Part shown: positions 1 through 16,258 of the stretch, one piece after another | How the letters are laid out: every line of letters begins with the position of its first letter | Numbering within the stretch: position 1 is the stretch's first letter | Source: Syntrophaceae bacterium | GTDB taxonomy: Bacteria > Desulfobacterota > Syntrophia > Syntrophales > UBA2185 | DNA length: 64,000 bases | Reading direction: 5' to 3' | Assembly: GCA_003153775.1 (NCBI GenBank) | Contig: PMBI01000082.1 | Coordinates: forward strand, 46,130-110,129 | Program-made: the position numbers and the translations under genes | The notes under the pieces: generated by a model | Told to the model about the DNA's origin: nothing | What the model saw: the letters and a program-made list of their open reading frames with translations, nothing else | Database searches by the model: none

Positions 1-1
1 C

Positions 2-2839
2 CGCAACATCGACGGAGCGGCCCGTGACGTCCAGGCTGCGATCAATGCGGCCCGATCCTACCTGCCGGCTGCCCTTCCTTCGAACCCGAATTATCGCAAG
101 GTGAACCCGGCGGAGGCGCCTATCCTCATTCTGGCCCTCACGTCCGATACGGTCGGAAGGGCACAGATGTACGACGCGGCGTCGACCATCCTCCAGCAAA
201 AACTCTCCCAAGTGGAAGGCGTCGGACAGGTGATAGTCGGCGGCGGATCATTGCCGGCGGTGCGTGTGGAGTTAAATCCCCTGTCACTGAGCAAGTATGG
301 GATCGGCCTTAACGACGTGCGTACTGCGCTCGCTACCACCAACGTGAACCGGCCCAAAGGTCAGCTGGCAAACGGCGAGAAGACATGGGAGATCAAAACG
401 AATGATCAGATGTACAAAGCGGAACTGTACCGTCCGATCATCGTTGCCTTCCAGTCGGGGGCGGCGGTAAGACTGTCTGATGTCGCCGATGTGCAGGATT
501 CGGTGGAGGATATACGCAACGCGGGTCTGGTAAACGGCAAACCCTCCATTATGGTAATCGTGTACCGTCAGCCGGGGATGAATATCATCGAGACTGTGGA
601 CCGCGTCGTTGAACTCCTGCCTCAGCTTGAAGCCTCCATTCCCGGAGCAATCAACCTCTCCGTCGTTCTCGACCGCACGACGTCAATTCGCGCCTCATTG
701 AGGGATGTCGAGCGCACCCTTGTCATCTCCGGTATACTCGTAATTCTGGTCGTATTTGCGTTCCTGAGGCATTTTCGGAGCGCCCTCATTCCAAGCATTG
801 CCGTGCCCGTATCGCTCATCACCACCTTTGGAGTCATGTACCTCTGCAACTACAGCCTCGATAACCTTTCCCTCATGGCGCTGACAATTGCCACGGGGTT
901 TGTCGTTGATGATGCGATTGTCGTCCTCGAAAACATCACCCGTCACTTGGAAAAGGGCGTTCCTTCCCATGAGGCCGCCTTACTGGGTGCGCGGGAGATC
1001 GGCTTCACCGTCCTTTCAATCAGCGTTTCCCTCGTGGCGGTGTTCATCCCTATCCTCCTCATGGGAGGGATGTTGGGGCGTCTCTTCCGCGAGTTCGCCG
1101 TGACGCTCTCTGCTGCCATTATGGTGTCTCTCGTGGTGTCGCTGACTGTCACGCCCATGATGTGCGCATATCTTCTGAAAACGGAAAAAGTTCGAACCCA
1201 CGGACGGCTGTTTAATATGAGCGGGCGCCTGTTTGACAGGATGCATCAGGGTTACGAAAAAAGCCTGTCCTGGGCGCTGAAACGCCAGCCACTCATGCTT
1301 GCCGTGATGCTCTCCACACTTGTGATCAGCATCATGCTCTTCATCATCGTTCCGAAAGGATTCTTTCCTCAGCAGGATACAGGCCGCCTGACAGGGACGA
1401 TACTCGCGGCCCAGGACATATCGTTCCAATCGATGAGAGACAAAATGGCGGCGATCGTGGACATAATCGGAAACGACCCGGCCGTGGAAACGGTAGCCGC
1501 ATTCACCGGCGGCGGCGGCGGGCGAGCGACAACGAATACGGGGCGGATGTTCATCGCCCTGAAACCCATAGAGGAGAGGAAGCTTAGCGCCGACCAGGTA
1601 ATCGCAAGACTTCGCAAAAAAATCAGCAGCGTTCCGGGAGCTCCTGCATATCTCCAGGCGGTACAGGACGTGCGTGCGGGGGGAAGGATGAGCGGGGGCC
1701 AATATCAGTACACGCTCCAGGGGGAAAACCTGATGGATCTCATGACATGGTGCCCCCTTATAGAACAGCGATTGCGCGAGGTCCCCGGCATTGTCGACGT
1801 GAACAGCGATCAGCAGAACAAAGGGCTTCAGGCGTCGCTTGTTATCGATCGCGCCACGGCGTCGCGCCTGGGTGTCAGCCCGCAGGTAATCGATGATACG
1901 CTTTACAGCGCGTTCGGCCAGCGGCAGGTATCGATCATGTACACGCCTCTGAATCAGTACCATGTTATAATGGAGGTCGAGCCACGCTTCTGGCAGCGCC
2001 CGGAGACACTCCGCTATATCTATGTGCCGTCATCGACTGGGGCGCTCATTCCCCTCAGCGCCTTCACCCATTACGATATGACGCAGACGTCGCTCGCAAT
2101 CAGCCATCAGGGACAATTCCCGTCAGTGACGCTGTCATTCAACCTCGCGCCGGGACTTGCCTTGGGCGATGCAGTGAAAGCGATCGACACCGCCACGCGG
2201 AAGATGGGATTGCCTTCGAGCATTCACGGCAGCTTTCAGGGGACGGCCCAAATATTTCAGGCATCCCTCGCCAATCAGCCCCTCCTGATCCTTGCTGCGC
2301 TGGTAGCGGTCTACATCGTCCTCGGCGTGTTGTACGAGAGTTACATCCATCCGCTTACCATTCTCTCGACGCTGCCTTCGGCGGGTGTCGGGGCATTCGT
2401 AGCTTTGCTGGTCTCGGGCACGGAGCTGACCATCATCGCCCTGATCGGACTCATCCTGCTCATCGGCATCGTGAAGAAAAACGGCATCATGATGGTGGAC
2501 TTTGCCCTGGCGGCTGAACGCAATGAAGGGAAACGCCCGGAAGACGCCATCTATCAGGCGTGTCTGCTGCGGTTCCGTCCGATCATGATGACGACCATGG
2601 CGGCCCTCCTGGGAGCGCTGCCCCTTGCCATTGGATTCGGCGTCGGGTCCGAACTCCGCCGTCCCCTCGGTATCGCCATCGTCGGCGGATTGATCTTCAG
2701 CCAGATGCTTACGCTCTATACGACTCCCGTGGTGTACCTCTATCTTGACCGTCTGCGGCTTCGCCTGCAAAAAAGAAAGACGGAGAGGAAGAGGTTGGCT
2801 GTCCACAATGTACCTGCCGGTGCGCCGGATGTGCAGTGA
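2..2839 (+). CDS. RND multidrug efflux permease (AcrB/MdtB/MdtC family), 5'-truncated by the window edge
   Basis: The frame is open from base 2 (RNIDGAARDVQAAINAARSYLP...), so the GTG at 101 is internal. The sequence is a long polytopic RND protein with the GFVVDDAIVVLENI motif. An outer-membrane factor gene follows. Confidence 0.9.
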   Translation, partial: RNIDGAARDVQAAINAARSYLPAALPSNPNYRKVNPAEAPILILALTSDTVGRAQMYDAASTILQQKLSQVEGVGQVIVGGGSLPAVRVELNPLSLSKYGIGLNDVRTALATTNVNRPKGQLANGEKTWEIKTNDQMYKAELYRPIIVAFQSGAAVRLSDVADVQDSVEDIRNAGLVNGKPSIMVIVYRQPGMNIIETVDRVVELLPQLEASIPGAINLSVVLDRTTSIRASLRDVERTLVISGILVILVVFAFLRHFRSALIPSIAVPVSLITTFGVMYLCNYSLDNLSLMALTIATGFVVDDAIVVLENITRHLEKGVPSHEAALLGAREIGFTVLSISVSLVAVFIPILLMGGMLGRLFREFAVTLSAAIMVSLVVSLTVTPMMCAYLLKTEKVRTHGRLFNMSGRLFDRMHQGYEKSLSWALKRQPLMLAVMLSTLVISIMLFIIVPKGFFPQQDTGRLTGTILAAQDISFQSMRDKMAAIVDIIGNDPAVETVAAFTGGGGGRATTNTGRMFIALKPIEERKLSADQVIARLRKKISSVPGAPAYLQAVQDVRAGGRMSGGQYQYTLQGENLMDLMTWCPLIEQRLREVPGIVDVNSDQQNKGLQASLVIDRATASRLGVSPQVIDDTLYSAFGQRQVSIMYTPLNQYHVIMEVEPRFWQRPETLRYIYVPSSTGALIPLSAFTHYDMTQTSLAISHQGQFPSVTLSFNLAPGLALGDAVKAIDTATRKMGLPSSIHGSFQGTAQIFQASLANQPLLILAALVAVYIVLGVLYESYIHPLTILSTLPSAGVGAFVALLVSGTELTIIALIGLILLIGIVKKNGIMMVDFALAAERNEGKRPEDAIYQACLLRFRPIMMTTMAALLGALPLAIGFGVGSELRRPLGIAIVGGLIFSQMLTLYTTPVVYLYLDRLRLRLQKRKTERKRLAVHNVPAGAPDVQ

Positions 2840-2924
2840 TCGGATGCGGAGGGCGGCATGTTCAAAAAAATCGTTGTTTGCGGGAGTCCATCTTGGTAAG
2901 ATGAACCGGCAGAAGGAATAATAT

Positions 2925-4421
2925 ATGATTCATCATAAGTCAGGGTATCGAGAATGGGCAAAGCCGCGCAGTCTTGCAATTGCCGCCGTTGCGGGGATGC
3001 TTGTCATTTTCACCGCGTGTGCGGTCGGACCTGACTATGTCAGGCCGAAAGACGAAGCGCCCGCCGCCTACAAGGAGGCAGCAGAGTGGAAGGTGGCACA
3101 GCCGCAGGAGGCCGTCGTCCGCGGAGCCTGGTGGAAGATATTTCAAGACCCTCAGCTTGACACCCTCGAAGAGCAGGTGAATATATCGAATCAGAATGTT
3201 GCCGCTGCGGAAGCGCAATTCAGGCAGGCGCGCGCCGCCGTGCAGGCTGCGCGTGCAGGCTATTTCCCTAATCTCTCAATCGGAGCCCAGGCCACTCGTT
3301 CCCTCGCATCAGGTAATGCCGGCAACGCTCTTGGTACGACGAACCAGGTTTCCGACCTGCTGTTGACAGGGACGGCCTCGTGGGAACCGGATATCTGGGG
3401 CAAGGTCCGTCGTACTGTCGAGGCAAGCCAGGCAGGCGCCCAGGCAAGCGCAGCAGACCTGGAATCGCTCCGCCTCAGCACCCAGGCTGCGCTGGCGCAA
3501 AACTATTTCCAACTCTGCGCGCTCGACGCTCAAAAAAAGCTTCTCGATGCGACGGCGGCGGCATTCCAGAAATCTATGGACATGACGGAGAGGCGCTACG
3601 CGAGCGGTGTGTCATCCAGGGCCGATGTCCTTCAGGCGGAGACACAGCTCAAAACCACGCAGGCGCAGGCGATCGATGTAGGGGTGCAGCGCTCCCAATT
3701 GGAGCATGCAATCGCACTCCTCGTGGGTAAACCGCCGTCTGGTTTATCCGTCCCCGCAACGCCCCTCGCGGCGACGCCGGTCGCCGTACCTTTCGGCATT
3801 CCTTCGGAGCTCCTTGAACGGAGGCCGGACATCGCCGCTGCGGAACGGCGCGTAGCGGCAGCGAATGCCCAGATCGGGGTTGCCAAGGCGGCCTATTTCC
3901 CGAACGTTGTCTTGAATGCAACGGGCGGATTTGAATCTTCGCATCTGTCCGACTGGCTCTCCTGGCCGAGCCGCCTCTGGTCTGTCGGCCTGGCCCTGAC
4001 GGAGACCGTATTCGATGCGGGTCTGAGGAGCGCCCTTACAGACCAGGCACGGGCAGCCTATGACGCGACGGTGGCGTCTTATCGCCAAACTGTGCTGGGG
4101 GGATTTCAGGAAGTGGAGGACAATCTCGCTGCGCTCCGGATACTGGAAGAAGAATCCCGCATCCAGGGCGAAGCGGTAAGCGCCGCGCGCCGATCATTGG
4201 AGGTCAGCATGAACCAATACAGAGCAGGAACAATAAGCTATATCGAAGTGGTGACCGTGCAGACTATCCTGCTTGCAAACGAAAGAACAGCCATCGACAT
4301 CCTCAGCCGCCGCATGGCTGCGAGCGTCCTCCTGATCAAAGCGATAGGCGGCGGTTGGAATTCCGCCTCGCTCCCGTCAAACAAGGAACTCAACAGCAGC
4401 AGGGATGACAAGCGCGATTAA
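2925..4421 (+). CDS. Efflux outer-membrane factor lipoprotein (NodT/OprM family)
   Basis: 498 aa with a signal peptide and lipobox (LVIFTAC). It has the Ala/Gln-rich two-repeat TolC-like sequence and lies 85 nt downstream of the RND gene. Confidence 0.85.
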   Translation: MIHHKSGYREWAKPRSLAIAAVAGMLVIFTACAVGPDYVRPKDEAPAAYKEAAEWKVAQPQEAVVRGAWWKIFQDPQLDTLEEQVNISNQNVAAAEAQFRQARAAVQAARAGYFPNLSIGAQATRSLASGNAGNALGTTNQVSDLLLTGTASWEPDIWGKVRRTVEASQAGAQASAADLESLRLSTQAALAQNYFQLCALDAQKKLLDATAAAFQKSMDMTERRYASGVSSRADVLQAETQLKTTQAQAIDVGVQRSQLEHAIALLVGKPPSGLSVPATPLAATPVAVPFGIPSELLERRPDIAAAERRVAAANAQIGVAKAAYFPNVVLNATGGFESSHLSDWLSWPSRLWSVGLALTETVFDAGLRSALTDQARAAYDATVASYRQTVLGGFQEVEDNLAALRILEEESRIQGEAVSAARRSLEVSMNQYRAGTISYIEVVTVQTILLANERTAIDILSRRMAASVLLIKAIGGGWNSASLPSNKELNSSRDDKRD

Positions 4422-4454
4422 CCGGCGCCTACCTGTCCGCCTCTTAAGAGTGAT

Positions 4455-4874
4455 CTACTCACCGATAATCTTGACGAGCACCCTTTTCTTTCGCCTGCCG
4501 TCAAATTCGCCGTAAAAGATTTGCTCCCACGGGCCGAAATCGAGCCTGCCCTCACTAATCGCGACGACCACTTCCCTTCCCATGATCTGACGCTTCAAAT
4601 GGGCATCACCGTTATCCTCACCCGTGCGATTGTGGCGATACTTTGAAACAGGTTCATGGGGCGCCAGCTTCTCCAGCCATTCTTCATAGTCCTGATGGAG
4701 GCCGGACTCGTCGTCGTTGATGAAAACGGAAGCCGTGATGTGCATCGCGTTTATAAGTGCGATGCCGTCGGTTATTCCGCTATCCTGGAGGCATTCTTCC
4801 ACCTGTGGCGTGACGTTCACGAAAGCACGACGGGTTGGAATGTTGAACCAAAGGTCTTTCCTGTAAGATTTCAT
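4455..4874 (-). CDS. yjbQ: YjbQ/UPF0047 family protein (secondary thiamine-phosphate synthase-like)
   Basis: 139 aa. Family-typical [18 protein letters not shown] and [17 protein letters not shown] segments. Confidence 0.8.
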
Positions 4875-4950
4875 TTTTCATTCTCCTCATGTGAAATGCA
4901 GAATTAGAATTAAATTTGTTTTTGTCAATTGGACGGGTGAACTCTTAAAA
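4815..4950. repeat. Copy A of a ~135-bp imperfect direct repeat (yjbQ codons 1-20 plus upstream region)
   Basis: By-eye alignment with 7550-7685 in the same orientation. The core acgggttggaatgttgaaccaaag is identical in both copies. Confidence 0.8.
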
Positions 4951-5351
4951 ATATTATCTCAGGTTTCTTCTTGAAAGCAACACGGAAAGTCGAAGACAGG
5001 ATATGCTAATCGTCAAATACAAAGCAGCAGGAAAGATCGGTAGATGATATCGTTGAATTCGGTGGAGAGCGCATTCCCCGCGCATACAGACTGCGCCGCC
5101 TTCCCGCAGAATTGTTTTTAAAATCTTGACCCTCCATTCTCCATTATAATCGGAAATAAACGAAGAAGCCGTAACCTGTATCGGAGATATTTCTGCACCG
5201 AGGGATATAAAATGGCAGAAATCTAATTTTGAATGTGGTACAACTTCCGGGGGCAGGTCAGAATGTACACTGCGTGGAAAAGATAAAAGATTATTTGGGA
5301 AGAGTCACTCTGAAATTGAAGTATCGACTTCAGACTATAGAAAGGTAATCC

Positions 5352-5996
5352 ATGAAGCTCAAGATACCCTACTACGCTCAGAGTTCCGAATTCAGCTGCG
5401 GACCCGCTTGTGTGCTGATGATTTTCAAGTTTTTTAACCCCAGCCTTAAGCTGAATCGTACCCTGGAGTTTGAGGTATGGCGTCAATGCAACATGATCGG
5501 AGTAAAAGGCGCAGACCCTTTCGGGATGAGTGTCCCGTTGTTAGATGCCGGCTATGAGGTCCACCTGTTAACGCAACGCAGGAGTGTGAGCGACCCTGAT
5601 TTGTGGAGCAGCAGGATGCAGGAACTTAGGTTGACCCCGGAAGACGAGGATTTAGCTGTTTTCGGTATTGCCGAGAATAAGAAGCGCGCTCTGGGCCGTG
5701 GCTTGACTGTGGTGTACAGCCAATTGACGGTCGAGCGGGTCGCTAAGTCCTTCTATGAAGGGTTCATCCCGATAGCATTGGTACACATGGGAGTGGTGCA
5801 CCAGCTGGACATACCTCATTGGGTAGTAGTGACGGACGTCGGAGATAATGATGTAGCCTTCAACGACCCCTATCCTCCCAAAGGGGGAAAGAACATTTGC
5901 GTGAGCCGGGAGGAATTCCGGCAGATGCTCGGTGCTGTTGGAACTCGGTTCGGTCTCAGCCCGTCGGTTATCTTTATCAGAAACTGCAACCAGTAA
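5352..5996 (+). CDS. Cytoplasmic peptidase C39-like (papain-fold) cysteine peptidase domain protein
   Basis: 214 aa. YYAQSSEFSCGPACVLMI supplies the Gln/Cys, IPHWVVV the His and FNDP the Asp of a C39-type arrangement. There is no signal peptide. Confidence 0.65.
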   Translation: MKLKIPYYAQSSEFSCGPACVLMIFKFFNPSLKLNRTLEFEVWRQCNMIGVKGADPFGMSVPLLDAGYEVHLLTQRRSVSDPDLWSSRMQELRLTPEDEDLAVFGIAENKKRALGRGLTVVYSQLTVERVAKSFYEGFIPIALVHMGVVHQLDIPHWVVVTDVGDNDVAFNDPYPPKGGKNICVSREEFRQMLGAVGTRFGLSPSVIFIRNCNQ

Positions 5997-6038
5997 AGGA
6001 ACCGGACTTTACGAATACAAAGAGGTAAACCCGAGCCT

Positions 6039-6950
6039 TTAAGATTTTATCGTAAGGGAGTACGACTTTAGCATCTCAACGGGATGATAGGATTTTTTCG
6101 ATTGGGCGAGGGTTGCAAGGTCCATATCACTCTCTTTGTTCATAAACACATATCCATGGAAGAGTTCCTTGGCACACTCATTGTCCAGAAACTGGTAAAG
6201 ACCTTTGATGTAGGGATAGGCCTTTTCAAAATTGAGGACGCCCATATCCTGCGTTAAATGGGACATGACGGCAAAGGCGCAGATCTCACCGTCTATCCGC
6301 ACACATAACCCGCGCCAGTCCAGCTCTCCTATGGTATGGAGCGCCTCAATGACCGCTGCCTTCTCACAGGTCATATTTTTCTCCTGCTCTTTGTCACATT
6401 CCTGCAGATCACACCATTTTTCAAGAAAGTCGAGACACTCGGGAACATCTTTTTCTGTGATCATCCCCGCGGTCGCCCGGTTATGATTAAGATATTCACG
6501 AGTAAACTGGTGAATCAGATTCCGTTTTTTTGCGTATCGATTTCCCTTGAGTTCGACGAGATCCTGGGTGAGATAGAGATAGTCCTCATACTCTTTCTGC
6601 TCAGTGATATCGAAATAAGGATGGAGCGAGTTCTCCCCCACTTCCTGCAGATAATCCCCGGGAACAAAACATATCCGCTCGCATCCCATCGCCATGACAA
6701 GTTCTTTCAGGGCAGCGGGTGCAGGCCGGCCATTTCCACCCACGGGCAGAATCAAGTATCCTTTGTCGTCATGGTCCATGATTTTCCTGGTCACGACGAT
6801 CACCTCGCCATCTGCAATCTCGTAATGAGATTCGAAGCAGTCGCCGTTCCAGGCAATGATCGAAGGCAGGGAATAGGTGCTGAGGCGGTGCGGCTGACGC
6901 TCAAAGAAGCTCTTCAACAACGGATAGTCTGCTCTGGTTAGTGGCTTCAT
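6039..6950 (-). CDS. Stand-alone DUF2156 protein (MprF C-terminal / aminoacyl-tRNA transferase fold), soluble
   Basis: 303 aa. Family-typical DYLYLTQDLVELKGNRYAKKRNLIHQF and NFEKAY...NKESDMDLATLAQSKKSYHP segments, with no TM segments. Its ATG overlaps the stop of the upstream GNAT gene (ATGA). Confidence 0.7.
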   Translation of the reverse strand: MKPLTRADYPLLKSFFERQPHRLSTYSLPSIIAWNGDCFESHYEIADGEVIVVTRKIMDHDDKGYLILPVGGNGRPAPAALKELVMAMGCERICFVPGDYLQEVGENSLHPYFDITEQKEYEDYLYLTQDLVELKGNRYAKKRNLIHQFTREYLNHNRATAGMITEKDVPECLDFLEKWCDLQECDKEQEKNMTCEKAAVIEALHTIGELDWRGLCVRIDGEICAFAVMSHLTQDMGVLNFEKAYPYIKGLYQFLDNECAKELFHGYVFMNKESDMDLATLAQSKKSYHPVEMLKSYSLTIKS

Positions 6951-7381
6951 CGCTTATAATCAATCTTCAGCAGCATCGGCAGAGAAAAAGGCATTTCCTC
7001 AAATCCTATTTTTCGATATAAGGAATGGGTGCGATTTTGAGCGATCAAACCGATCCACCGCATGTTGTCACTACGGAGACGACCCACGATTTCTTCGACA
7101 ATCCTTGTTCCGATCCCCTGATGTCGAAGTCTGGGGGAAACGGTCACATCGTGAATATAGGCGTCATTCACACGATCGCTGATTGCCCGACCCATCCCCC
7201 TAATCTCGTTTCCGTCTCTGACGGTCAAAAAGCAGTGACTCCCCGAAATGATGCGACGGATCAACTCGTGATTTCCATTATCCTGCTCATCCCACCAGCC
7301 GGCTTCCCGGTATAAGGCCGCGATCTGCTCGATTTCCCCAGGATTGGGGTCGGTTATAAACTGATATTTATACTCTATCAT
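6947..7381 (-). CDS. GNAT family N-acetyltransferase
   Basis: Acetyl-CoA motif RLRHQGIGTRIVEEIV. I chose the ATG at 7381 (MIEYKYQ...). A TTG at 7417 is an alternative start. The gene is translationally coupled to the DUF2156 gene. Confidence 0.75.
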   Translation of the reverse strand: MIEYKYQFITDPNPGEIEQIAALYREAGWWDEQDNGNHELIRRIISGSHCFLTVRDGNEIRGMGRAISDRVNDAYIHDVTVSPRLRHQGIGTRIVEEIVGRLRSDNMRWIGLIAQNRTHSLYRKIGFEEMPFSLPMLLKIDYKR

Positions 7382-7549
7382 GTTGATAATGGTCGATGTA
7401 CATCTTCCAGACGGCAAAGGGCGGAGAGCTGATTACCGGACCTGTGACGATATGTGGTTGCCATGGCCAAGCGCCATGACGAACCAAGCATTAATCCGCC
7501 TTTCTCTTATAAAAAAATATCAAACATGAATAAATAAATCAAGGTTAAC

Positions 7550-7609
7550 GTTTACGAAAGCCCGACGGGTTGGAATGTTGAACCAAAGCCCTTACCCGTA
7601 ACATTTCAT
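7550..7609 (-). pseudogene. Decayed 5' fragment of a yjbQ paralogue (20 codons, in-frame stop at codon 6)
   Basis: It translates as [19 protein letters not shown], against [20 protein letters not shown] for the intact yjbQ at 4815-4874. Similarity ends at codon 20. Confidence 0.75.
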
Positions 7610-7685
7610 TTCTTATGCTCTTATGCGAAATGCAAAATAAAAAAATAACTTCACTTTTGTTAAGCAAATGGATGAACTCTTATTA
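7550..7685. repeat. Copy B of the ~135-bp imperfect direct repeat
   Basis: Same orientation as 4815-4950. It includes the former yjbQ upstream region (...gcgaaatgcaaaat...gatgaactctta). Confidence 0.8.
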
Positions 7686-7818
7686 CGGCGGCAAACAATT
7701 ATATCAATCCTGTCATTCCCGAAAATTCGGGCATCCATCCAAAATACTCGATGGGGGATCGAGTCCGGCATGACAATAGGCGTCTTAATCGGGCGCGCTT
7801 TTGGCGTAGGAGTTTTTC

Positions 7819-9396
7819 TCATTTATTTGACGATACGCAAACTTCCAATATCCGATCCACGTTGAATACTCGTCTTTCTTTGCGCATCAAGCAATAGGCA
7901 TTCATTCCGAGAAAAGGATGACCGTTGTATTCCATCTCTCCGACAGACATCGGCCTGATTGTGCGGCGCGATTTTTCGTCCTTTGCTTTTAAATAGAGAA
8001 TATCCAGATTCTTCTTCTCTCTTATAGCGGAACGAATAATTTGCAATTTATCGTCGCGAGAGCATTTTTGTTCTGCTTTATCGTATTGTGTACGTGTAAG
8101 AAATTTTACAATATGCCAATCCATCAAAACGTGACTTTTCTTCAGCGGTTGCTTCAGGATTATTCCGTCCAGAGATGTGCAGCGCGAGAGGGCAACATAC
8201 ATCTGTCCGTGGGCGAACGTTCCGCGCCCCACGTCGATGATAACATTTTCAAAGGTTTTCCCCTGGCTTTTGTGGATAGTGACGGCAAAAGCCAGGCGGA
8301 TGGGATACTGAGTGAACGACCCGACATCTTCGGAACAAAGCTCATTATCTTTTAAGAAGAAACGGTATATTTTCCAGGTATAGGGACTAATTTCCACGGA
8401 TTCGCCGTTATCTAATTTGGCGGCAATTATCTCTTCGCCGTCGTCATCCTTTTCAAATCCCGTTATTTTGCCGATGGTGCCGTTGATCCACCTTCCATAA
8501 GTATCGTTGTTCAAAAGCATTATTTGGGCGCCTTTTTTTAGTTTCAATTCCGTTGCTGTCGGCAGATATTCTTTACCAAATTCGCCGTCAATCATACCTT
8601 GCGCTTTCCATATTTTGCCGGGAAGCTTAGCCAACTGTTCCTCGTTAATGCCGTCGGCTAAATCATTAGTGCTTGTCAAAGAGAGATAAAAAGAGCCGGA
8701 AGGGGAGGTAAACTGAGAATCATAGCGCTTATTGAACAGCGCGATATCGTCATCCGTGATGGAGTTATTGCGGATAGCGTTGAGCAGGCGAATAAATTCG
8801 TTATCTTTCTGGCGATAAACTTTTTCCAACTCGACAAATTCCATATCCAGTTGTTCCAATATTTTGGCGCTGAAGAAATAAGGACTGCTATAGTACGACT
8901 GGAAGATATCTCTTTCGCGGCTGGTGACAACAGGCGGCAACTGGTAAAGATCTCCGATAAAAATCATTTGCACGCCGCCGAATGGACGTTTGGAATTGGG
9001 GCCGTTGAGGCGCAGAAATTTATCCACACAATCCAGCAGATCAGCACGTACCATGGACACTTCATCAATGAGGATGGTTGTCAACTTCTTATAGATAGAG
9101 GATTTTTCTTTGGCGGCGCCCCTTTTCTTCTTGATAGCAGTTAGAGTTACATCAGGCTTGAAATGAAAAAAAGAATGAATTGTCTGTCCGCCGACATTAA
9201 CAGCGGCAACACCGGTAGGGGCCAGGATTACTACTTTCTTTCTTGTAGTATTGCGGAAATAATTTAAGAGAGTTGATTTACCGGTGCCCGCCCGGCCGGT
9301 TATGAAGATATTCTTGTCCGTCTCTTCCATCAACTCCAGAGCATGCTTAAACTCGGGATTAAAATCAATCTCAGCCGGTTTTGCTGTCTTATTCAT
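7819..9396 (-). CDS. PIF1/RecD-family SF1B helicase with C-terminal WYL domain
   Basis: 525 aa. Walker A is GRAGTGKST and Walker B is ILIDEVSM. The AFAVTIHKSQG and ALSRC motifs are present. The C-terminal tail (LDILYLKAKDEKSRRTIRPMSVGEMEYNGHPFLGMNAYCLMRKERRVFNVDRI) has the WYL-domain pattern. The gene is visibly AT-rich. Confidence 0.85.
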   Translation of the reverse strand: MNKTAKPAEIDFNPEFKHALELMEETDKNIFITGRAGTGKSTLLNYFRNTTRKKVVILAPTGVAAVNVGGQTIHSFFHFKPDVTLTAIKKKRGAAKEKSSIYKKLTTILIDEVSMVRADLLDCVDKFLRLNGPNSKRPFGGVQMIFIGDLYQLPPVVTSRERDIFQSYYSSPYFFSAKILEQLDMEFVELEKVYRQKDNEFIRLLNAIRNNSITDDDIALFNKRYDSQFTSPSGSFYLSLTSTNDLADGINEEQLAKLPGKIWKAQGMIDGEFGKEYLPTATELKLKKGAQIMLLNNDTYGRWINGTIGKITGFEKDDDGEEIIAAKLDNGESVEISPYTWKIYRFFLKDNELCSEDVGSFTQYPIRLAFAVTIHKSQGKTFENVIIDVGRGTFAHGQMYVALSRCTSLDGIILKQPLKKSHVLMDWHIVKFLTRTQYDKAEQKCSRDDKLQIIRSAIREKKNLDILYLKAKDEKSRRTIRPMSVGEMEYNGHPFLGMNAYCLMRKERRVFNVDRILEVCVSSNK

Positions 9397-9864
9397 TTTG
9401 ATCAGTCTTTTCTGGTTCTAACGCAGGTCTTCTCTTAGGGCGGAAAAGTGCGTCCGACGGACTTTTTGCCGCGCCGGTAATATCTTTTCCGGCGCCATTT
9501 TCTTGTCTAAAAGAGACTTTTGAAACTCTGGAAGAATATCGTTGGCACAAATTCCCGGTATTTACGAAGTTCGTTCTTAGCCCTTGTTACCATAATATCC
9601 GAAATGATGTAAATGGGCTTTAATGGTAATTATGTAATGTCTGCTTCCTGTAAGCGTCAGGTCGAGTAATTTCACTGCTGTAGTAGATTTCAAACACAAA
9701 TCGTGATAGTCAAAATATGAAATAGGCGGTTGAATGAGTTCCTTTTCTTGCCAGTCGCGCCTCCGCCCATAGATTGCCTTCGTCGCATCCGGATGGGAAG
9801 AAATTGCAGAATTCATCCATAACAAGTTGAAACATCTATCAATAACAAAGAACGAGGAAAAATC

Positions 9865-10311
9865 ATGAGCAAGCTTCTTAAGGATTATCCTGTCGTCATT
9901 GAATTTCCTGTCGCCTGGGGTGAAATGGACGCTATGAGTCACGTGAACAACATCGTATATTTCAGATATTTCGAGAGCGCCAGGATTGCCTATTTTGAAA
10001 AGGCGGACATGTTCAGTTACATGACAGAAACAGGGATTGGACCCATTCTCGCCACGATATCCTGTAAATTCAAGATACCCCTGTCATATCCCGATCATGT
10101 CCTCATCGGTGCGAAAGTAATCAGCATCGAAAAGGACCGTTTTATCATGAATCACGTTGTCGTCAGTAAAAAGCATCAGAAGGTGGCCGCTGAAGGTGAC
10201 GGGGTGATCGTGATCTTCAATTATCGGCAGGGCAAGAAAGTGACTGTCCCCGAGGTGGTGAAAGAGAGAATTCTTGATATCCAGAAATCGACTCAGGGAA
10301 AGGAAGATTAG
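9865..10311 (+). CDS. Acyl-CoA thioesterase, 4HBT (hotdog) family
   Basis: 148 aa. WGEMDAMSHVNNIVYFRYFESARIAYF is typical of YbgC/FadM-like thioesterases. Confidence 0.8.
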   Translation: MSKLLKDYPVVIEFPVAWGEMDAMSHVNNIVYFRYFESARIAYFEKADMFSYMTETGIGPILATISCKFKIPLSYPDHVLIGAKVISIEKDRFIMNHVVVSKKHQKVAAEGDGVIVIFNYRQGKKVTVPEVVKERILDIQKSTQGKED

Positions 10312-10438
10312 CTTTAAATTTATACAATGCCGAAATATCTGTTTCCTCTATAAACCCACATGCCGGCGCGTCGGCACAAGTAATAGTGAAAACAGATCGC
10401 GATTGCTGCTCCCCCGACTTCTATTTTGTTTTGCTTGT

Positions 10439-11401
10439 TTATTTATCAAACGGATACTTGTCTTGATTTCTCATTATCCCATCTGCTCTCGTGCGCCTCT
10501 GGGCATAATATCTGAGGGGCATGACAAGACCAAAAAAGGGAATGATATACATGGCAGCCACAATGGGTTCGATAGGGCCGAAAAACTCAGAGGAAAAAAC
10601 AATCACCAGGACATTATTCATGTTCGCTAACATGACTGCGCCGGCCAGTTGATTCTCCACAGAACTTTTCCAGAAGAAGAGGATCCCGACGGTGCAGCAG
10701 ATCGCCGACAACACTATGGCCACTGCGGATGCCGTGATAATGATGATGGGCTCTTTTTTGAAAAGTGGTGCATACCGGCAGAAAATTCCCAGATTTATTA
10801 CGGCAAAAAGCAGGAGAGAAATGGGAAACTGCCTTTTCATCAGATGCTTCAACAGGCCCGGGGTGACGCGTCTCAGGCCTTCAATGACTAAAATGGGGAC
10901 GAAGATCACCAGCATAAGCATGCGGACCATGGCGATCAGCGACAGCTCCGCATACTTCGCTGCAACAACATGGATGAGAGCCGGTAAAGTGATGGGCACC
11001 AGGACCGATGTGATCACGACGACCACCAGGACAAGAGGGCTATTCCCTTTTATCAGATTGGATATGAAAGGGGCCACAACCCCTGTGGAAACACCTACCA
11101 AGAGCAATGCGGACAGGGCATAAGTCGGGGCAAAAAATTTAAATATATAAAAAACGACCACAGGCAGAATCAGGCTTTTCAGAACGGTAAAAGTTAAAAT
11201 GGTCTTGTAATGGTCTTTCAGCGTCCTCCAGACAGTATCCAGTTCAATGGAAAGGTAACTGAGGGCAAAAAGGACCATCAGACAGTAAATAGGCAGGGAT
11301 TGGAAAAAAGAACCGAAGTGGGGGAAGATGATCCCTGTCGCCATGGAGGAAAGGACCACGAAGAGAAGTAAGAGATCGTTTACACGAAATGGAAGTTGCA
11401 T
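10439..11401 (-). CDS. Bile acid:sodium symporter (BASS/SBF-like) family transporter
   Basis: 320 aa, about 10 TM segments, with a GVSTGVVAPFISNLIKGNSPL segment resembling the BASS signature. Confidence 0.55.
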   Translation of the reverse strand: MQLPFRVNDLLLLFVVLSSMATGIIFPHFGSFFQSLPIYCLMVLFALSYLSIELDTVWRTLKDHYKTILTFTVLKSLILPVVVFYIFKFFAPTYALSALLLVGVSTGVVAPFISNLIKGNSPLVLVVVVITSVLVPITLPALIHVVAAKYAELSLIAMVRMLMLVIFVPILVIEGLRRVTPGLLKHLMKRQFPISLLLFAVINLGIFCRYAPLFKKEPIIIITASAVAIVLSAICCTVGILFFWKSSVENQLAGAVMLANMNNVLVIVFSSEFFGPIEPIVAAMYIIPFFGLVMPLRYYAQRRTRADGIMRNQDKYPFDK

Positions 11402-11445
11402 GTTTGATAGAACCTGTCGATTAAGGTTTTAATTTCTGCAACATA

Positions 11446-11482
11446 TGAAGCTCTCCGCAGCAAGCCAAGCTGCGGACAATTC
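11446..11482 (-). repeat. Copy of the recurring intergenic hairpin element (minus-strand orientation)
   Basis: The minus strand reads gaattgtccgcagcttggcttgctgcggagagcttca. The stem is tccgcagc/gctgcgga. The element lies about 45 nt upstream of the BASS start codon. Confidence 0.7.
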
Positions 11483-11581
11483 GCTCGCATTAGAGTTCAA
11501 GAGAGTGGAATAGCATATAGAAATCCCTCTCCAATCCCCTTTACAAAAGGGAGGAACATGTTCGGGAAGACCGGCGCGGAA

Positions 11582-12781
11582 TCAGGCATTGTCGCGAAAC
11601 AGTTTGAGCCAGATGGGGCCGCTCATGGAAACCAATCCGAGTATGGCAAATGCAAATCCCCATCCGTAGATTCCGCTCCCGGAGACATCGAGTACGAGGC
11701 CGAAGGCGAGGGGCGCAAGAAATGCCATGCCGAATCCGACAAACGCGTACAGTGCCAGCGTCCTGCCGCGTTCAGAGTCATGTGCCGCTGCGACGACACC
11801 GGCTGTCAGCGCAGCACTGTCGAGCATCATGGCAATCCCATAGAGCACGCAGAGTCCCGCGACCATGATAAAAGGCAGAGCAGCGGTAAAGCCTATGATG
11901 CAGCCGATGAGACCGGCGGCAAGCATGAAGATCGTGATGACGCGCCTCCGTTCCGATATCAGCGCCAGTTCATTGCCGAGGACACTGGCAGGCACGCCCG
12001 CGAAAAGAACGATCGTGGCCAGGTTCTGCGGAGTGATGTGGTATTCACGGATAGTTTGCAGGCTTATGCTGAAGGCGAGAAAGGTGACGAGCCATGTACG
12101 AAATCCAAAGAGCTCCCAGCAGTGAACCGCATATCCGCACATGTAGCCTATAGCCGAACGGTTCCGGAGAGCTCCGCGAAAATTAAAGGATGAGAGGAGA
12201 GGTTCTTTTCGCGGCAGATCAGGCGTCTTTGGCCGAACGGCAAGAGCGAAGATCAATGCGGCTCCGAGGCATCCCACGGCCAGCATCACAGCCGAGGAGC
12301 GCCAGTCAAGCAAAGTCACCAGCCACCCGGATAGAAATACCGATATGGCCGTGCCGATGCCATACGAAGACGTGTAAAAGGCGATGGACCTGCTCTGCGT
12401 TTTTCCAGTGATGTGATCGCTGAGCGCCTTCAGTCCCGGCATGTACGTCCCGGCCAGGCTTACACCTGCGCAGAATCTGAATAACATCGCCGTGAGCGTG
12501 CCCTCGGCAAGCCACCCGAAGCCCGCCATCGAGGCTGCGCCGAAGACGGCAGAATAGAGGTAGATGCGGCGCGGGTCGATCCTGTCGGTGAGACTCACAA
12601 GGATGGGTACAAAGGCCGCGTATCCTCCATAGAAGATGCCATTGATCCAACCGGCCTCGGTATTGCTGAGGCCCCACTCGGCCTGAAAGCCGGGAAGAAG
12701 GGCCGGGAAGTACATCGTCCCGGCCATGGAGAATATTTCGGCGGCACATACGCAAATGATGAATCTGACCTGACTGTTCAT
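11582..12781 (-). CDS. MFS transporter
   Basis: 399 aa, about 12 TM segments, with the hydrophobic two-half architecture of the family. Confidence 0.75.
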   Translation of the reverse strand: MNSQVRFIICVCAAEIFSMAGTMYFPALLPGFQAEWGLSNTEAGWINGIFYGGYAAFVPILVSLTDRIDPRRIYLYSAVFGAASMAGFGWLAEGTLTAMLFRFCAGVSLAGTYMPGLKALSDHITGKTQSRSIAFYTSSYGIGTAISVFLSGWLVTLLDWRSSAVMLAVGCLGAALIFALAVRPKTPDLPRKEPLLSSFNFRGALRNRSAIGYMCGYAVHCWELFGFRTWLVTFLAFSISLQTIREYHITPQNLATIVLFAGVPASVLGNELALISERRRVITIFMLAAGLIGCIIGFTAALPFIMVAGLCVLYGIAMMLDSAALTAGVVAAAHDSERGRTLALYAFVGFGMAFLAPLAFGLVLDVSGSGIYGWGFAFAILGLVSMSGPIWLKLFRDNA

Positions 12782-12900
12782 GCGCGAAAAAAGATGAGGA
12801 TTAATAAATTAATTGTCTTTGTCGGATTTTTCTACCATTCTTTTCGGATTATTGTAATAATCAATTGCATTGAACTCAATCGATTTCTTAAATTTATCTT

Positions 12901-13536
12901 ATGGAAAATACATTTCGAGAAACCGGCGGCATTGAAGTGGTACTGTTTGATTTCGGGGGTGTTCTCTCTGAAGAAGGCTTCCGGAACGGCCTCCGGGCAA
13001 TTGCGAGGCTAAACGGATTCGACGAAGAGACCTTTGTCAGGACTGCCAACGATGTGATCCATGCCTGTGGATACGTTACCGGCAAAGTGCCCGAAAACGC
13101 CTATTGGGAAATATTGAGAGGGACTACCGGCGTCCGGGGTGATGACCAGTTCCTGAGAAATGAAATACTGTCCCGTTTCAAAATGAGAGAATGGATGATC
13201 GGCACGGTGAAAAGGCTCAAGGTGCTTAAAGTCCGTGTGGGGATCCTCAGTGACCAGACCGGCTGGCTTGATGAACTCGATGCCCGGTATCACTTTTTCA
13301 GGCTGTTTGATTATGTTTTCAACAGCTATCATATGGGGAAGAGCAAGAAGGACCAGACGCATTTTCTGGATGTGATCCGTGCGTTAGGAACTGAGGCGCG
13401 TAGAGTACTCTTTATTGACGATGACGCGGGGAACTGCGAAAGGGCTGAACAAGCGGGTTTGAAGGTTATCCATTACCTGGACCGTGAACAATTCCTTGAA
13501 GAGATTGCCGGATATTTTCCGGCAATGACATCATAA
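12901..13536 (+). CDS. HAD-superfamily hydrolase (subfamily IA-like)
   Basis: 211 aa. Motif I is VLFDFGGVL, the distal motif is LFIDDDAGN, and the size is typical. Confidence 0.7.
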   Translation: MENTFRETGGIEVVLFDFGGVLSEEGFRNGLRAIARLNGFDEETFVRTANDVIHACGYVTGKVPENAYWEILRGTTGVRGDDQFLRNEILSRFKMREWMIGTVKRLKVLKVRVGILSDQTGWLDELDARYHFFRLFDYVFNSYHMGKSKKDQTHFLDVIRALGTEARRVLFIDDDAGNCERAEQAGLKVIHYLDREQFLEEIAGYFPAMTS

Positions 13537-13613
13537 GACATGGCGCAGACCGTGAGACCGGCCATATTGGCAGGACTGGGGTCCTGCACTACTTCTGTGT
13601 CGCGTCTTTCCAT

Positions 13614-13642
13614 TTGACACATATACACATTTTTCTTATACT
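13614..13642 (+). promoter_or_regulatory. Candidate sigma70 promoter (TTGACA-17 nt-TATACT)
   Basis: Near-consensus hexamers with 17-nt spacing lie about 60 nt upstream of the acyl-CoA synthetase start. Confidence 0.45.
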
Positions 13643-13703
13643 CTAATATCATTTCCGCTTGACACCCTTCATTTCTACTAACCAAAAAGGACGAGGAGGA
13701 CCC

Positions 13704-15731: not shown

Positions 15732-15808
15732 GTGCTATGCGCTTATGCAGTGATGTGTGGCCCTGGCCGGCGGTGTTGCCGCGTCTGATGAACCATATAT
15801 GTCAGTCT

Positions 15809-16258
15809 TCAGTGGATTTTGTGATCCGTAAGCAGGTTGGCCATAATCAGACCGTAAAAACTTTCCCTGCCGGACTGGTAATTCCAGCCTAAGTGAGTGA
15901 AGCAATTTGCACACACTGCGATGCACCAGGTGAATCCGGGAAACCATGTGGCCTCGTATGTGGGGATGCCGTAGATGAAACTGCCCCATGCCCTGGAAAA
16001 GCAGCCGATATGGAAGGTAATGCCGAGAGGATTTTTAAATATATGTGCATGCTGACCGTTTACGGCAATGCTGTATCCGACGGTTGTGATCTCGTTTCTG
16101 CAGTTCTTACAAATGATTGACTCTTCTCTTTCTTCAGTTTTCTCTTCCTCCAATATTTTCGAGCAGACTGCAGCGATTTGCTCGTCCGCAGATTCTTTCA
16201 GTGTCCGCAGAGGGGCTACGTGATATGAATGTATTTCATGTCTCGTGCGAAAATTCAT
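15809..16258 (-). CDS. Bacterial cereblon-like CULT (beta-tent, thalidomide-binding-type) domain protein
   Basis: Two CxxC zinc pairs (CKNC, CANC) and three Trp (AWG, TWF, TWC) are spaced as in the CULT aromatic cage. The C-terminal HLGWNY...FYGLI segment is also present. I chose the ATG at 16258. The ORF extends to a GTG at 16327. Confidence 0.7.
   Translation of the reverse strand: MNFRTRHEIHSYHVAPLRTLKESADEQIAAVCSKILEEEKTEEREESIICKNCRNEITTVGYSIAVNGQHAHIFKNPLGITFHIGCFSRAWGSFIYGIPTYEATWFPGFTWCIAVCANCFTHLGWNYQSGRESFYGLIMANLLTDHKIH

Follow-up and report, generated by a model that had tools for sequence, protein, structure and literature searches.

The window analysed here is a 64,000-nt stretch of a Syntrophaceae bacterium genome (GenBank assembly GCA_003153775.1, contig PMBI01000082.1, positions 46,130 to 110,129 of the forward strand). 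It carries an intact yjbQ gene, a three-gene cassette, a second copy of the yjbQ start and further cargo that reaches to an MFS transporter gene. Pfam backs the gene calls of the first-pass annotation (UPF0047/YjbQ, C39-like DUF3335, LPG_synthase_C (DUF2156), GNAT and PIF1+WYL helicase). The features of the locus, in window coordinates, are:

4455..4874, minus strand: yjbQ (UPF0047), intact, 139 aa (Pfam PF01894, E=2.4e-37)
4813..4947, minus strand: repeat copy A, yjbQ codons 1-21 and the 73 AT-rich nt before them, RBS AGGAG included; the type I module, in use
4964..5027: conserved hairpin-forming element of ~60 nt, at the end of the extended type I upstream region
5052..5110: degenerate copy of a dispersed REP/MITE-like repeat (TTGAATTCGG...), holding the right junction at ~5100-5105
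5084..5177: ~90-nt segment between imperfect 20-nt inverted repeats
~5100..7552: relocated cassette of ~2.45 kb, also found at other loci in related MAGs
5352-5996, plus strand: C39-like DUF3335 gene (Pfam)
6039-6950, minus strand: DUF2156/LPG_synthase_C gene (Pfam)
6947-7417, minus strand: GNAT gene (Pfam)
7546..7552, minus strand: left junction, 7-nt microhomology AACGTTA (TAACGTT on the plus strand), from a three-way comparison
7548..7682, minus strand: repeat copy B, the type I promoter with 21 codons, displaced and now dead
7680..7786: MITE-like element of 107 nt with a terminator-like hairpin
7808..9640, minus strand: unit with a PIF1-type helicase carrying a C-terminal WYL domain (gene 7819-9396; Pfam)
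9865-10311, plus strand: 4HBT thioesterase gene, remaining cargo
10439-11401, minus strand: SBF-like transporter gene, remaining cargo
11446..11500: REP-like repeat copy at the far border of the variable region
11582..12781, minus strand: MFS transporter gene (Pfam, synteny), directly upstream of yjbQ in empty-site genomes

A repeat search within the window recovers 4813-4947 and 7548-7682 as a direct repeat with a constant offset of 2735 nt, made up of two blocks (4813-4885 vs. 7548-7620, 86% identity; 4908-4947 vs. 7643-7682, 70% identity). Over the full 135 nt the copies are 72% identical ungapped and 79% identical with two 1-nt indels. The recurrence of the yjbQ 5' end and its upstream region in the same orientation, first seen by eye, is borne out: the local alignment score of 123 is far better than that of 500 dinucleotide shuffles (17.5 ± 2.6; z=40), and a BLAST search of the complete 3.1-Mb genome returns the repeat at E=1.6e-24. 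The near-identity claimed for the first ~40 nt amounts to 37 of the 39 positions at 4815-4853, and translation confirms an in-frame stop at codon 6 of copy B, which has also lost its RBS (GGAG). The homology had been placed as ending at codon 20; it actually extends to the end of codon 21 and one base beyond (AAC GTT A), and the last 7 nt of this yjbQ-like sequence are also native to the cassette flank. The working gene matches PF01894 over its full length, scoring 128.1 bits where the gathering cut-off is 27 and covering profile positions 1-117 of 117. Among 80 yjbQ loci from many phyla, there were no orphan yjbQ starts within 10 kb of the gene. An Rfam search at a permissive threshold gave no relevant riboswitch or other RNA in 4000-12000, and in the dispersed-repeat loci nothing relevant except a tRNA-Sec.

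In three members of the same genus (G010, G008 and G006) and in three other genera (G015, G021 and G012), the site between the two core genes is empty, with MFS 60-200 nt from yjbQ. These six relatives identify ~4950-11500 as a variable, low-GC mosaic between two core genes; they support the first-pass reading of an insertion or replacement, and each cassette-free relative carries one copy only of the yjbQ start. GC is 40-50% in the variable stretch vs. 55-62% in the flanks, so the AT-rich character noted earlier stands, but the stretch runs to ~11.5 kb rather than ~10.4 kb; homology to all relatives restarts at ~11496-11500. The same two genes flank different cargo in other relatives, including AbiTii, PIF1-WYL helicase, WD40-caspase, TPR, PDZ, GH94 and ABC-transporter genes. 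Some of this cargo is of defence type (AbiTii in G004, WD40-caspase in L137), and much of it is non-defence (GH94, PDZ, ABC transporter, thioesterase). The helicase constitutes a discrete 1.83-kb unit that also occurs at other loci in G002 and G008, and its PADLOC matches, to the candidate system PDC-S68 and to RecD-like and WYL models, are weak and partial. The variable region is a mosaic of several independently relocating units.

Small repeats contribute to this mosaic. The hairpin-forming element at 4964..5027 is nearly invariant in an alignment of six relatives and has dispersed copies at other loci of the genus. The segment at 5084..5177 lies in flipped orientation in G009, G004 and contig L145 relative to the studied genome and G005. 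The 107-nt MITE-like element lies upstream of both repeat copies in L145, with a copy at another intergenic site (equivalent to window ~13566) in G004 and L143. The ~300 nt of conserved type I upstream sequence was considered as a dedicated "island end" and rejected, being a mosaic of small dispersed repeats that are also found separately.

The cassette is single-copy in the studied genome and occurs elsewhere, with flanks unlike those of the target, at L147, L148, L149, L150, L151 (on a second contig of G002) and L154. At all of these loci it retains ~130 nt of its own upstream sequence without a yjbQ promoter. Most of the relatives are MAGs, in which some contig contexts could be mis-binned; G004 is a closed chromosome. 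These copies provide the source sequence for both junctions. At the left junction, AACGTTA is common to yjbQ codons 20-21 and to the flank of the cassette elsewhere, with ..GGTGACCTT-AACGTTA-ACCTTG in the source, ..GCTTTCGTA-AACGTTA-CACCGC in the target and ..GCTTTCGTA-AACGTTA-ACCTTG in the product. At the right junction (~5100-5105), source and target homologies overlap in AGGAAG, a tract that occurs both at the cassette end elsewhere and, in genomes without the cassette, in the type I upstream region, and that is located ~225 nt before the ATG in copy A of the studied genome. On the plus strand this junction is CTTCCC, the complement of the AGGAAG tract, which the studied genome reads as GGGAAG; it is obscured by a ~90-nt inversion that came later and by a REP-like repeat. 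The target duplication on either side of the insert measures 135 nt here; in L137 it is 228 nt long and in L145 349 nt.

The two ends of the working yjbQ differ in ancestry. Codons 1-21 are of a foreign type, designated type I, and codons 22-139 are native to the genus; per-segment identity matrices give ~60% identity between type I and native alleles over codons 1-21 and 85-94% over codons 22-139. The type I promoter and codons 1-21 are joined in frame to native codons 22-139, so that the 5' end of the gene has been restored by element-borne sequence. This arrangement is found in the working yjbQ of every insertion-bearing genome; all five genomes with type I carry an insertion, and all empty sites are native. 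The 5' fragment had been described as either duplicated or carried in, and both descriptions apply, copy A being the foreign type I module. Exact-pattern scans for a type I donor lineage returned only this genus and its metagenome relatives. Every copy B that we found (studied genome, G004, G009, L136, L137, L143 and L145) abuts the same cassette, which points to a single junction event. Copy B is type I in the studied genome and native in G004 and G009, and crossover points vary: they fall within codons 16-21 in copy B of G004 and G009, at the RBS tract in copy A of G003 and copy B of L143, and at position -38 in G002. A search for a decayed copy B in G002 and G003 recovered only native upstream sequence down to -38, in G002. 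A third, native-type yjbQ fragment was sought at ~11.4-11.6 kb and throughout 7690-11450, where alignment scores were no better than those of shuffles.

We consider it likely (probability of about 70%) that the repeat was left as a scar when a segment inserted into the variable interval between MFS and yjbQ independently of any recombinase and duplicated its target, and that homologous (Campbell-type) spread followed, with the yjbQ 5' repeat as an arm. Comparison of source, target and product indicates that a cassette from other loci entered a type I yjbQ locus by way of the two microhomologies, AACGTTA and AGGAAG, which placed the promoter and 21 codons (228-349 nt in the younger versions) on both sides of the insert. 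The first event was probably a template switch during replication, or an illegitimate join of equivalent effect; switching out at AACGTTA, copying the cassette and switching back upstream at AGGAAG would yield exactly the observed structure. For the cassette, dS is 0.14-0.27 vs. 0.34-0.53 for the flanking genes RND, OEP and MFS, a ~3-fold lower value which shows that the unit afterwards passed from species to species within the genus, and did so recently. The low-dS tract reaches through yjbQ in G005 only, indicating that the right end-points of the transferred tract vary. We infer that this spread involved homologous recombination (Campbell-type or double-crossover) in which the yjbQ 5' repeat supplied one of the homology arms. 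Such spread would account for a working gene whose promoter and codons 1-21 are foreign (type I) and whose sequence is native from codon 22, for the native copy B of G004 and G009 alongside the type I copy here, and for a yjbQ that is intact under its own promoter though severed from the MFS gene once directly upstream. The far side of copy B would later have been overwritten by the helicase unit. Against this reading stand the outcome of the exact-pattern scans, which revealed no type I donor, the 43-nt tract of copy B described below, and the small extent of sequence identity (~18 nt) at which the proposed crossover would have entered native yjbQ, a short length for an exchange that depends on RecA.

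If the insert were instead a site-specific integrative island like those at dusA, its att core would lie at yjbQ codons 16-21, and it would carry a replacement promoter and 5' end and depend on an integrase acting in trans or since lost. Such an island would explain the restoration of the target 5' end by element-borne sequence. In G004 and G009, moreover, copies A and B share an identical 18-nt tract (GGGCTTTCGTAAACGTTA) with differing arms (native vs. type I), as attL and attR would, and an element encoding a large serine recombinase interrupts yjbQ in a sister genus. We nevertheless consider such an island improbable. The first-pass remark that no integrase or transposase is visible holds across all locus variants examined (at least 13); in the variable loci of G000, G002, G003, G004, G009, G016, L135, L136, L137, L143 and L145, Pfam searches of ORFs of at least 60-80 aa gave no tyrosine or serine recombinase. 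At its other loci the cassette has only 7 nt (AACGTTA) of the supposed core, preceded by GGTGACCTT and not GCTTTCGTA, and a site-specific att core was rejected on these flanks. Only a single cargo was ever joined at the junction, crossover points differ among genomes as do the right end-points of the tract, and the serine-recombinase element of G013 lies at another codon (~41-50) and left the gene unrestored. A transposon, IS or MITE was also rejected, since the cassette ends show no terminal inverted repeats, the duplication is 135-349 nt and the cassette contains no transposase; an IS5-like DDE transposase lies beside the cassette at L149 only. No tRNA occurs near the region, and tRNA-linked integration was therefore rejected.

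The repeat could instead be purely local in origin, either through tandem duplication of the cassette together with the yjbQ promoter and 21 codons followed by loss of one cassette, or through deletion of most of one of two ancient yjbQ paralogs. Tandem duplication is the commonest kind of illegitimate event, and it makes exactly one novel junction, here between codon 21 and the cassette left end; a second full yjbQ paralogue is moreover present in the studied genome on contig C93. The first step would be mechanistically almost the same as in the microhomology insertion that we favour. Without horizontal spread, however, a local origin is quite unlikely: the ~3-fold lower dS of the cassette and the differing types of copy B both call for transfer or recombination across lineages, the C93 paralogue is neither type I nor copy B-like over its codons 1-21, and a second, exact deletion is also needed.

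Retention of copy B for a function, as a promoter of the GNAT-DUF2156 operon or as a decoy site for a yjbQ regulator, seems to us scarcely probable, for the cassette retains its ~130 nt of upstream sequence at all other loci, where the yjbQ promoter is absent, a promoter scan gave 4 sites vs. 4.5 ± 1.8 in shuffled sequence (no excess), and the upstream sequence in G004 and G009 is unrelated (native), even though copy B points into the GNAT-DUF2156 pair just downstream in the same orientation, contains a predicted sigma-70-like match (TTAACA-18-TATTTT, 7663-7634, minus strand) and was here struck by changes in the RBS and early codons rather than in codons 8-21. These codons (43 nt) match the type I consensus perfectly, and the remainder of copy B has decayed; such a tract fits uniform neutral decay poorly and could hint at conversion or constraint. 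On the insertion reading that we favour, copy B is a roleless, decaying relic in the studied genome. Intact versions occur on contigs L145 and L136; L145, from a metagenome, is a younger form in which the 349-nt repeat is 93.4% identical, and copy B of L137 measures 228 nt. Copies A and B of the studied genome, being recombinant alleles, probably differed from the outset, so that the 21-28% difference between them would not all be decay in place.

With source, target and product all readable, and with older and younger versions of the insertion surviving in related genomes, the insertion at yjbQ is a cleanly resolved natural case of gene movement without mobility genes at the site. It illustrates how a partial gene duplicate can arise as an insertion by-product and then act as a homology arm for spread, and how a core gene severed from its upstream neighbour is kept working by an imported promoter. 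For annotation, short orphan gene starts beside low-GC cargo are to be read as recombination scars and are not necessarily integrase sites. A more speculative possibility, which we consider less likely than not, is that the promoter and 21-codon module serves as a portable, recombinase-free "knock-in arm". Any DNA of the form [yjbQ codons 1-21]-cargo-[promoter + yjbQ] could then enter the yjbQ of other species by host recombination alone, leaving yjbQ working under its own promoter, and cargo would self-target and spread without a mobility gene.

Known systems offer several parallels. A foreign segment between direct target duplications, with one truncated and one intact gene copy, resembles Campbell-type insertion-duplication, where one crossover integrates a circle bearing a promoter-proximal fragment of a gene, with the same product. 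The 6-7-nt junction microhomologies and the lack of a dedicated recombinase resemble microhomology template switching (MMBIR/FoSTeS-like) or homology-facilitated illegitimate recombination (HFIR); amplification in E. coli and the MMBIR mechanism are discussed in PMC3161906, and HFIR in transformation in PMC6382021. Unlike those cases, the product at yjbQ is a heritable inter-species unit whose duplicated 5' fragment was apparently reused as a homology arm. Like the dusA-specific integrase islands (Farrugia et al. 2015, PMC4482086), the yjbQ insertion occupies the start of a conserved gene of housekeeping type, has an element-borne 5' end that keeps the gene intact and leaves a displaced 5' fragment at the far side. 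It differs from them in its lack of an integrase, in a shared att core of at most 7 nt, in its one cargo and in crossover points that vary; the resemblance is one of outcome and not of membership. The scar is the result of ordinary genome shuffling at a variable spot and represents no new kind of mobile element or system. Its setting, with conserved flanks (MFS, yjbQ), empty sites, varied cargo, lower GC and small dispersed repeats, is that of chromosomal variable or defence-island hotspots, but unlike the usual hotspots, one border falls within a gene's coding region, where a portable promoter and 21-codon module mends the break.

GC content falls from 55-62% to 40-50% across ~4.5-11.5 kb of the window. 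Pfam assigned AcrB-type RND pump and OEP genes, together with the following:

4455-4874, minus strand, yjbQ (UPF0047)
5352-5996, plus strand, C39-like DUF3335 gene
6039-6950, minus strand, LPG_synthase_C/DUF2156 gene
6947-7417, minus strand, GNAT gene
7819-9396, minus strand, PIF1 helicase gene with a WYL domain
between the helicase and MFS genes, a thioesterase and an SBF-like transporter
11582-12781, minus strand, MFS transporter

YjbQ (4455-4874) shows 76-87% identity across Thermodesulfobacteriota, Chloroflexota, Acidobacteriota, Nitrospirota, Planctomycetota and others (extracted loci L029-L108), which is unusually high conservation for a 139-aa protein of uncertain role. This genome (G000, 98 contigs) has a second full-length yjbQ paralogue (G000:C93:3746-4162, L116; 85% aa identity), with a DUF6125 gene upstream of it and an acyl-CoA dehydrogenase gene convergent to it.

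The first-pass annotation described a direct repeat of the yjbQ 5' end bracketing the C39-like, DUF2156 and GNAT genes (the cassette, ~5100-7552), and a repeat search confirmed it as two blocks at a single 2735-nt offset (4813-4885 vs. 7548-7620, 86%; 4908-4947 vs. 7643-7682, 70%). Read position by position, similarity between copy A (on the working yjbQ) and the displaced copy B begins abruptly at 4813/7548 and stops at 4947/7682, with 37 of 39 positions matching in the core (4815-4853). The local alignment score of 123, against 17.5±2.6 in 500 dinucleotide-preserving shuffles (z = 40), passes the shuffle test proposed for the pair, and copy B is the sole strong second match in the whole 3.1-Mb assembly (E = 1.6e-24). 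Its yjbQ-like translation gives way to unrelated sequence. In the window, copy B has lost its RBS (AAGGAG to AAGAGC), and the in-frame stop reported at codon 6 is present. At every locus the cassette still has ~130 nt of upstream sequence of its own, and its expression therefore does not require copy B.

Window positions 1-16000 were compared by BLASTN with the yjbQ loci of the genus and of other genera (Syntrophaceae/Syntrophales genomes from fen, peat and sediment, most of them MAGs), and three states were found. At empty sites, MFS and then yjbQ follow in the same orientation with a gap of only 60-200 nt (genomes G010, G008 and G006 of the same genus; G015, G021 and G012 of three other genera); the synteny comparison suggested earlier thus yields cassette-free sites where yjbQ adjoins the MFS gene. 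G002 and G003 have 3.7 kb of unrelated genes at the site (PDZ protein; radical-SAM SPL-like protein). G009, G005 and G004 have the same three-gene cassette as the window; in G004 the site also has an AbiTii gene and an extra 14.8 kb that includes a GH94 glucan-synthase-like gene. Homology to every relative restarts at ~11496-11500. From these three states, ~4950-11500 is therefore a variable region between two core genes; the earlier reading of the three-gene interval as an insertion or replacement is supported and extended.

Alignment of the start regions distinguishes two kinds of yjbQ 5' end. The native start (ATGAAGTCCTATCGTGAGGAATTATGGTTTAA...; MKSYREELWFNTPGRRAFVNI) is present at every empty site, while type I, a foreign promoter plus codons 1-21, has an AT-rich upstream region (..TTTTGCATTTCGCATAAGGAGAAT..). 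In per-segment identity matrices the two are only ~60% identical over codons 1-21, a split wider than that between the native alleles of one genus and another; from codon 22 onward, identity across genus members is 85-94%, without the split. Type I is found on the working yjbQ of G000, G005, G004, G009 and G002, exactly the insertion-bearing genomes, and G003 combines the type I upstream region with a native coding sequence. G004 and G009 have a native-type copy B, the window a type I one, and all copies B stop at one point and enter identical cassette sequence (..CGTAAACGTTA|ACCTTGATTTATTTATTCA). Because yjbQ lies directly downstream of MFS at empty sites, its expression once the two are separated is probably maintained by the imported type I promoter. 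A promoter scan showed no excess of sites over shuffled sequence (4 vs. 4.5±1.8).

Among species representatives, an exact-pattern search with the type I core recovered only the four relatives already known; it also recovered eleven metagenome contigs. In contig L145 both copies are present, 2845 nt apart, as a 349-nt repeat of 93.4% identity (1086-1430 vs. 3927-4275), and copy B is still intact, RBS and 21 codons included. This repeat has three parts: the promoter with 21 codons, a conserved 60-nt element (window 4964-5024) and a 107-nt element (7680-7786) whose only place in the window is beside copy B. Copy B of L137 spans 228 nt and lacks the 107-nt element, that of L136 is type I and intact, and L143 has type I codons after a third kind of upstream sequence; each copy B adjoins the same cassette. 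The longer variant repeats therefore indicate an original duplication longer than the window's 135 nt, and its far part has been overwritten in the window. Codons 8-21 of the dead copy B (7548-7590, 43 nt) match the type I consensus at every position, and the ~95 nt beside them have many changes (15-25% divergence). Taking 10-15% divergence, the chance of such identity is ~0.001-0.01; gene conversion, constraint or chance are possible explanations.

A DUF2156 protein search located the cassette elsewhere, in L147, L148, L149, L150, L151 (second contig of G002) and L154, at 84-95% protein identity (76% for L154). The genes nearby at these loci are mreB/rlmL, an IS5-like gene or others, never yjbQ; in this genome the cassette occurs at yjbQ only. 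The overlapping GNAT-DUF2156 pair (6039-7417) is kept without the C39-like gene in L154 (76%, MBL-fold gene neighbour) and in a Desulfobacteraceae MAG (L155; 47% identity, rhomboid gene neighbour). To judge from these arrangements, the functional unit looks like the pair, not the trio.

The other-locus copies allow the junctions to be read. The left flank of the cassette there is ..CGGTGACCTT-AACGTTA-ACCTTGATTT..., type I yjbQ reads ..GCTTTCGTA-AACGTTA-CACCGCAGG..., and copy B reads ..GCTTTCGTA-AACGTTA-ACCTTGATTT.., which places the left junction within a 7-nt microhomology (7546-7552). At other loci the true left flank runs 20-27 nt past AACGTTA. On the right side, homology of G000 and G005 to the other-locus cassette stops in AGGAAG at ~5100-5105 (GGGAAG in this genome), and that tract is also where their homology to cassette-free G002 and G003, in the type I upstream region, starts. 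Given these shared tracts, both junctions are source/target microhomology joints, and the target sequence lying between the two is present twice.

A discrete unit consisting of the helicase gene and minimal flanks (7808-9640) recurs at unrelated loci in G002 and G008 (91-92% nucleotide, 92-93% protein identity), and the helicase has partial PADLOC matches only. The variable region is thus made up, mosaic-like, of small units with dispersed repeats between them. In G005, one contig ends in a 146-nt piece of the helicase unit (98%). A dispersed REP/MITE-like repeat, TTGAATTCGGTAGCGAGCGCATTCCCCG..GCTTGCTGCGGAGAGCTTCAA, occurs at 5052-5110 and 11446-11490 and in at least 27 copies across the contigs of this genome; its two forms, a short one of ~51 nt and a long one of ~125 nt, have TTGAA/TTCAA inverted ends. 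Upstream of type I yjbQ, the ~60-nt element (4964-5027), which has two hairpins (GTTTTCTTCTTGAAAAC.., GAAGACAGG..), hardly varies. The same element lies inside a 200-350-nt composite repeat at other loci of the genus (L119-L127), followed by a TTGACA..TAGAAT promoter-like motif and varied cargo (AIPR beside tRNA-Sec, Mrr-like nuclease, ADP-ribosylglycohydrolase); neither element nor composite repeat had a match in Rfam. Imperfect 20-nt inverted repeats flank a ~90-nt segment (5084-5177) that has one orientation in this genome, G005 and the other-locus cassette and the opposite one in G009, G004 and L145; it could be an orientation-dependent promoter because it holds TTGACC..TATAAT-like hexamers. 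The MITE-like 107-nt element has a terminator-like hairpin (7764-7746, minus strand); G004 and L143 have a copy of it at another intergenic site, equivalent to window ~13566, and G000:C7 has part of one. In a sister genus, a 6.4-kb element splits yjbQ of G013:C248 (L128, 4158-11016) at ~codon 41-50 and leaves the gene unrestored; its ten ORFs all lie on one strand, and it ends in a large serine recombinase (Resolvase plus Zn_ribbon_recom, in two ORFs). G017 has two contigs (L129, L130) whose ends coincide with codon 41, suggesting either that this insertion is shared or that the population is mixed.

In Nei-Gojobori comparisons of this genome with G004, G009 and G005, the three cassette genes have dS values of 0.14-0.27, and RND, OEP and MFS have values of 0.34-0.53; from this contrast, the cassette therefore moved between species after their divergence. 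For yjbQ codons 22-139, dS is 0.11 vs. G005 (within the low-dS tract) and 0.70 and 0.75 vs. G004 and G009 (outside). The right end of the transferred tract thus differs among genome pairs, an outcome of homologous recombination, not of a fixed att site. Pfam scans found no integrase, resolvase or transposase in the variable-locus ORFs of G000, G002, G003, G004, G009 and G016 or in the variable locus of the metagenome contigs L135, L136, L137, L143 and L145, in agreement with the first-pass annotation, where none was visible. The only transposase seen adjoins an other-locus cassette copy, in L149.

We infer the first event from the junctions. A replication template switch out at AACGTTA and back at AGGAAG, behind the departure point, would give target (to codon 21)-cassette-target (AGGAAG onward); an equivalent illegitimate join or a tandem-duplication junction would give an equal product. 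Recombination between the two repeats could then loop out a circle of cassette plus one repeat, or linear DNA carrying both repeats could be the vehicle, and either form could enter another yjbQ via homologous recombination. In a native-type recipient the sole sizeable identity tract would be at codons 16-21, leaving copy B native to ~codon 16 and the working gene type I to codon 21 and then native (G004, G009); a type I recipient would have both copies type I (window, L145, L136). Other joints lie in the shared RBS AAGGAGAAT (copy A of G003, copy B of L143) and at position -38 in G002. Because there are several crossover points, variable tract ends, a single codon-21 cargo and no recombinase, the sequences favour host recombination over a site-specific system.

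The mechanism is ordinary, yet documented unusually well. dusA-type islands reach the same outcome, insertion in the 5' end of a gene with restoration (PMC4482086), but this locus has neither the integrase nor the shared att core that define them. It fits insertion-duplication by illegitimate and homologous recombination, at a hotspot for variable cargo.
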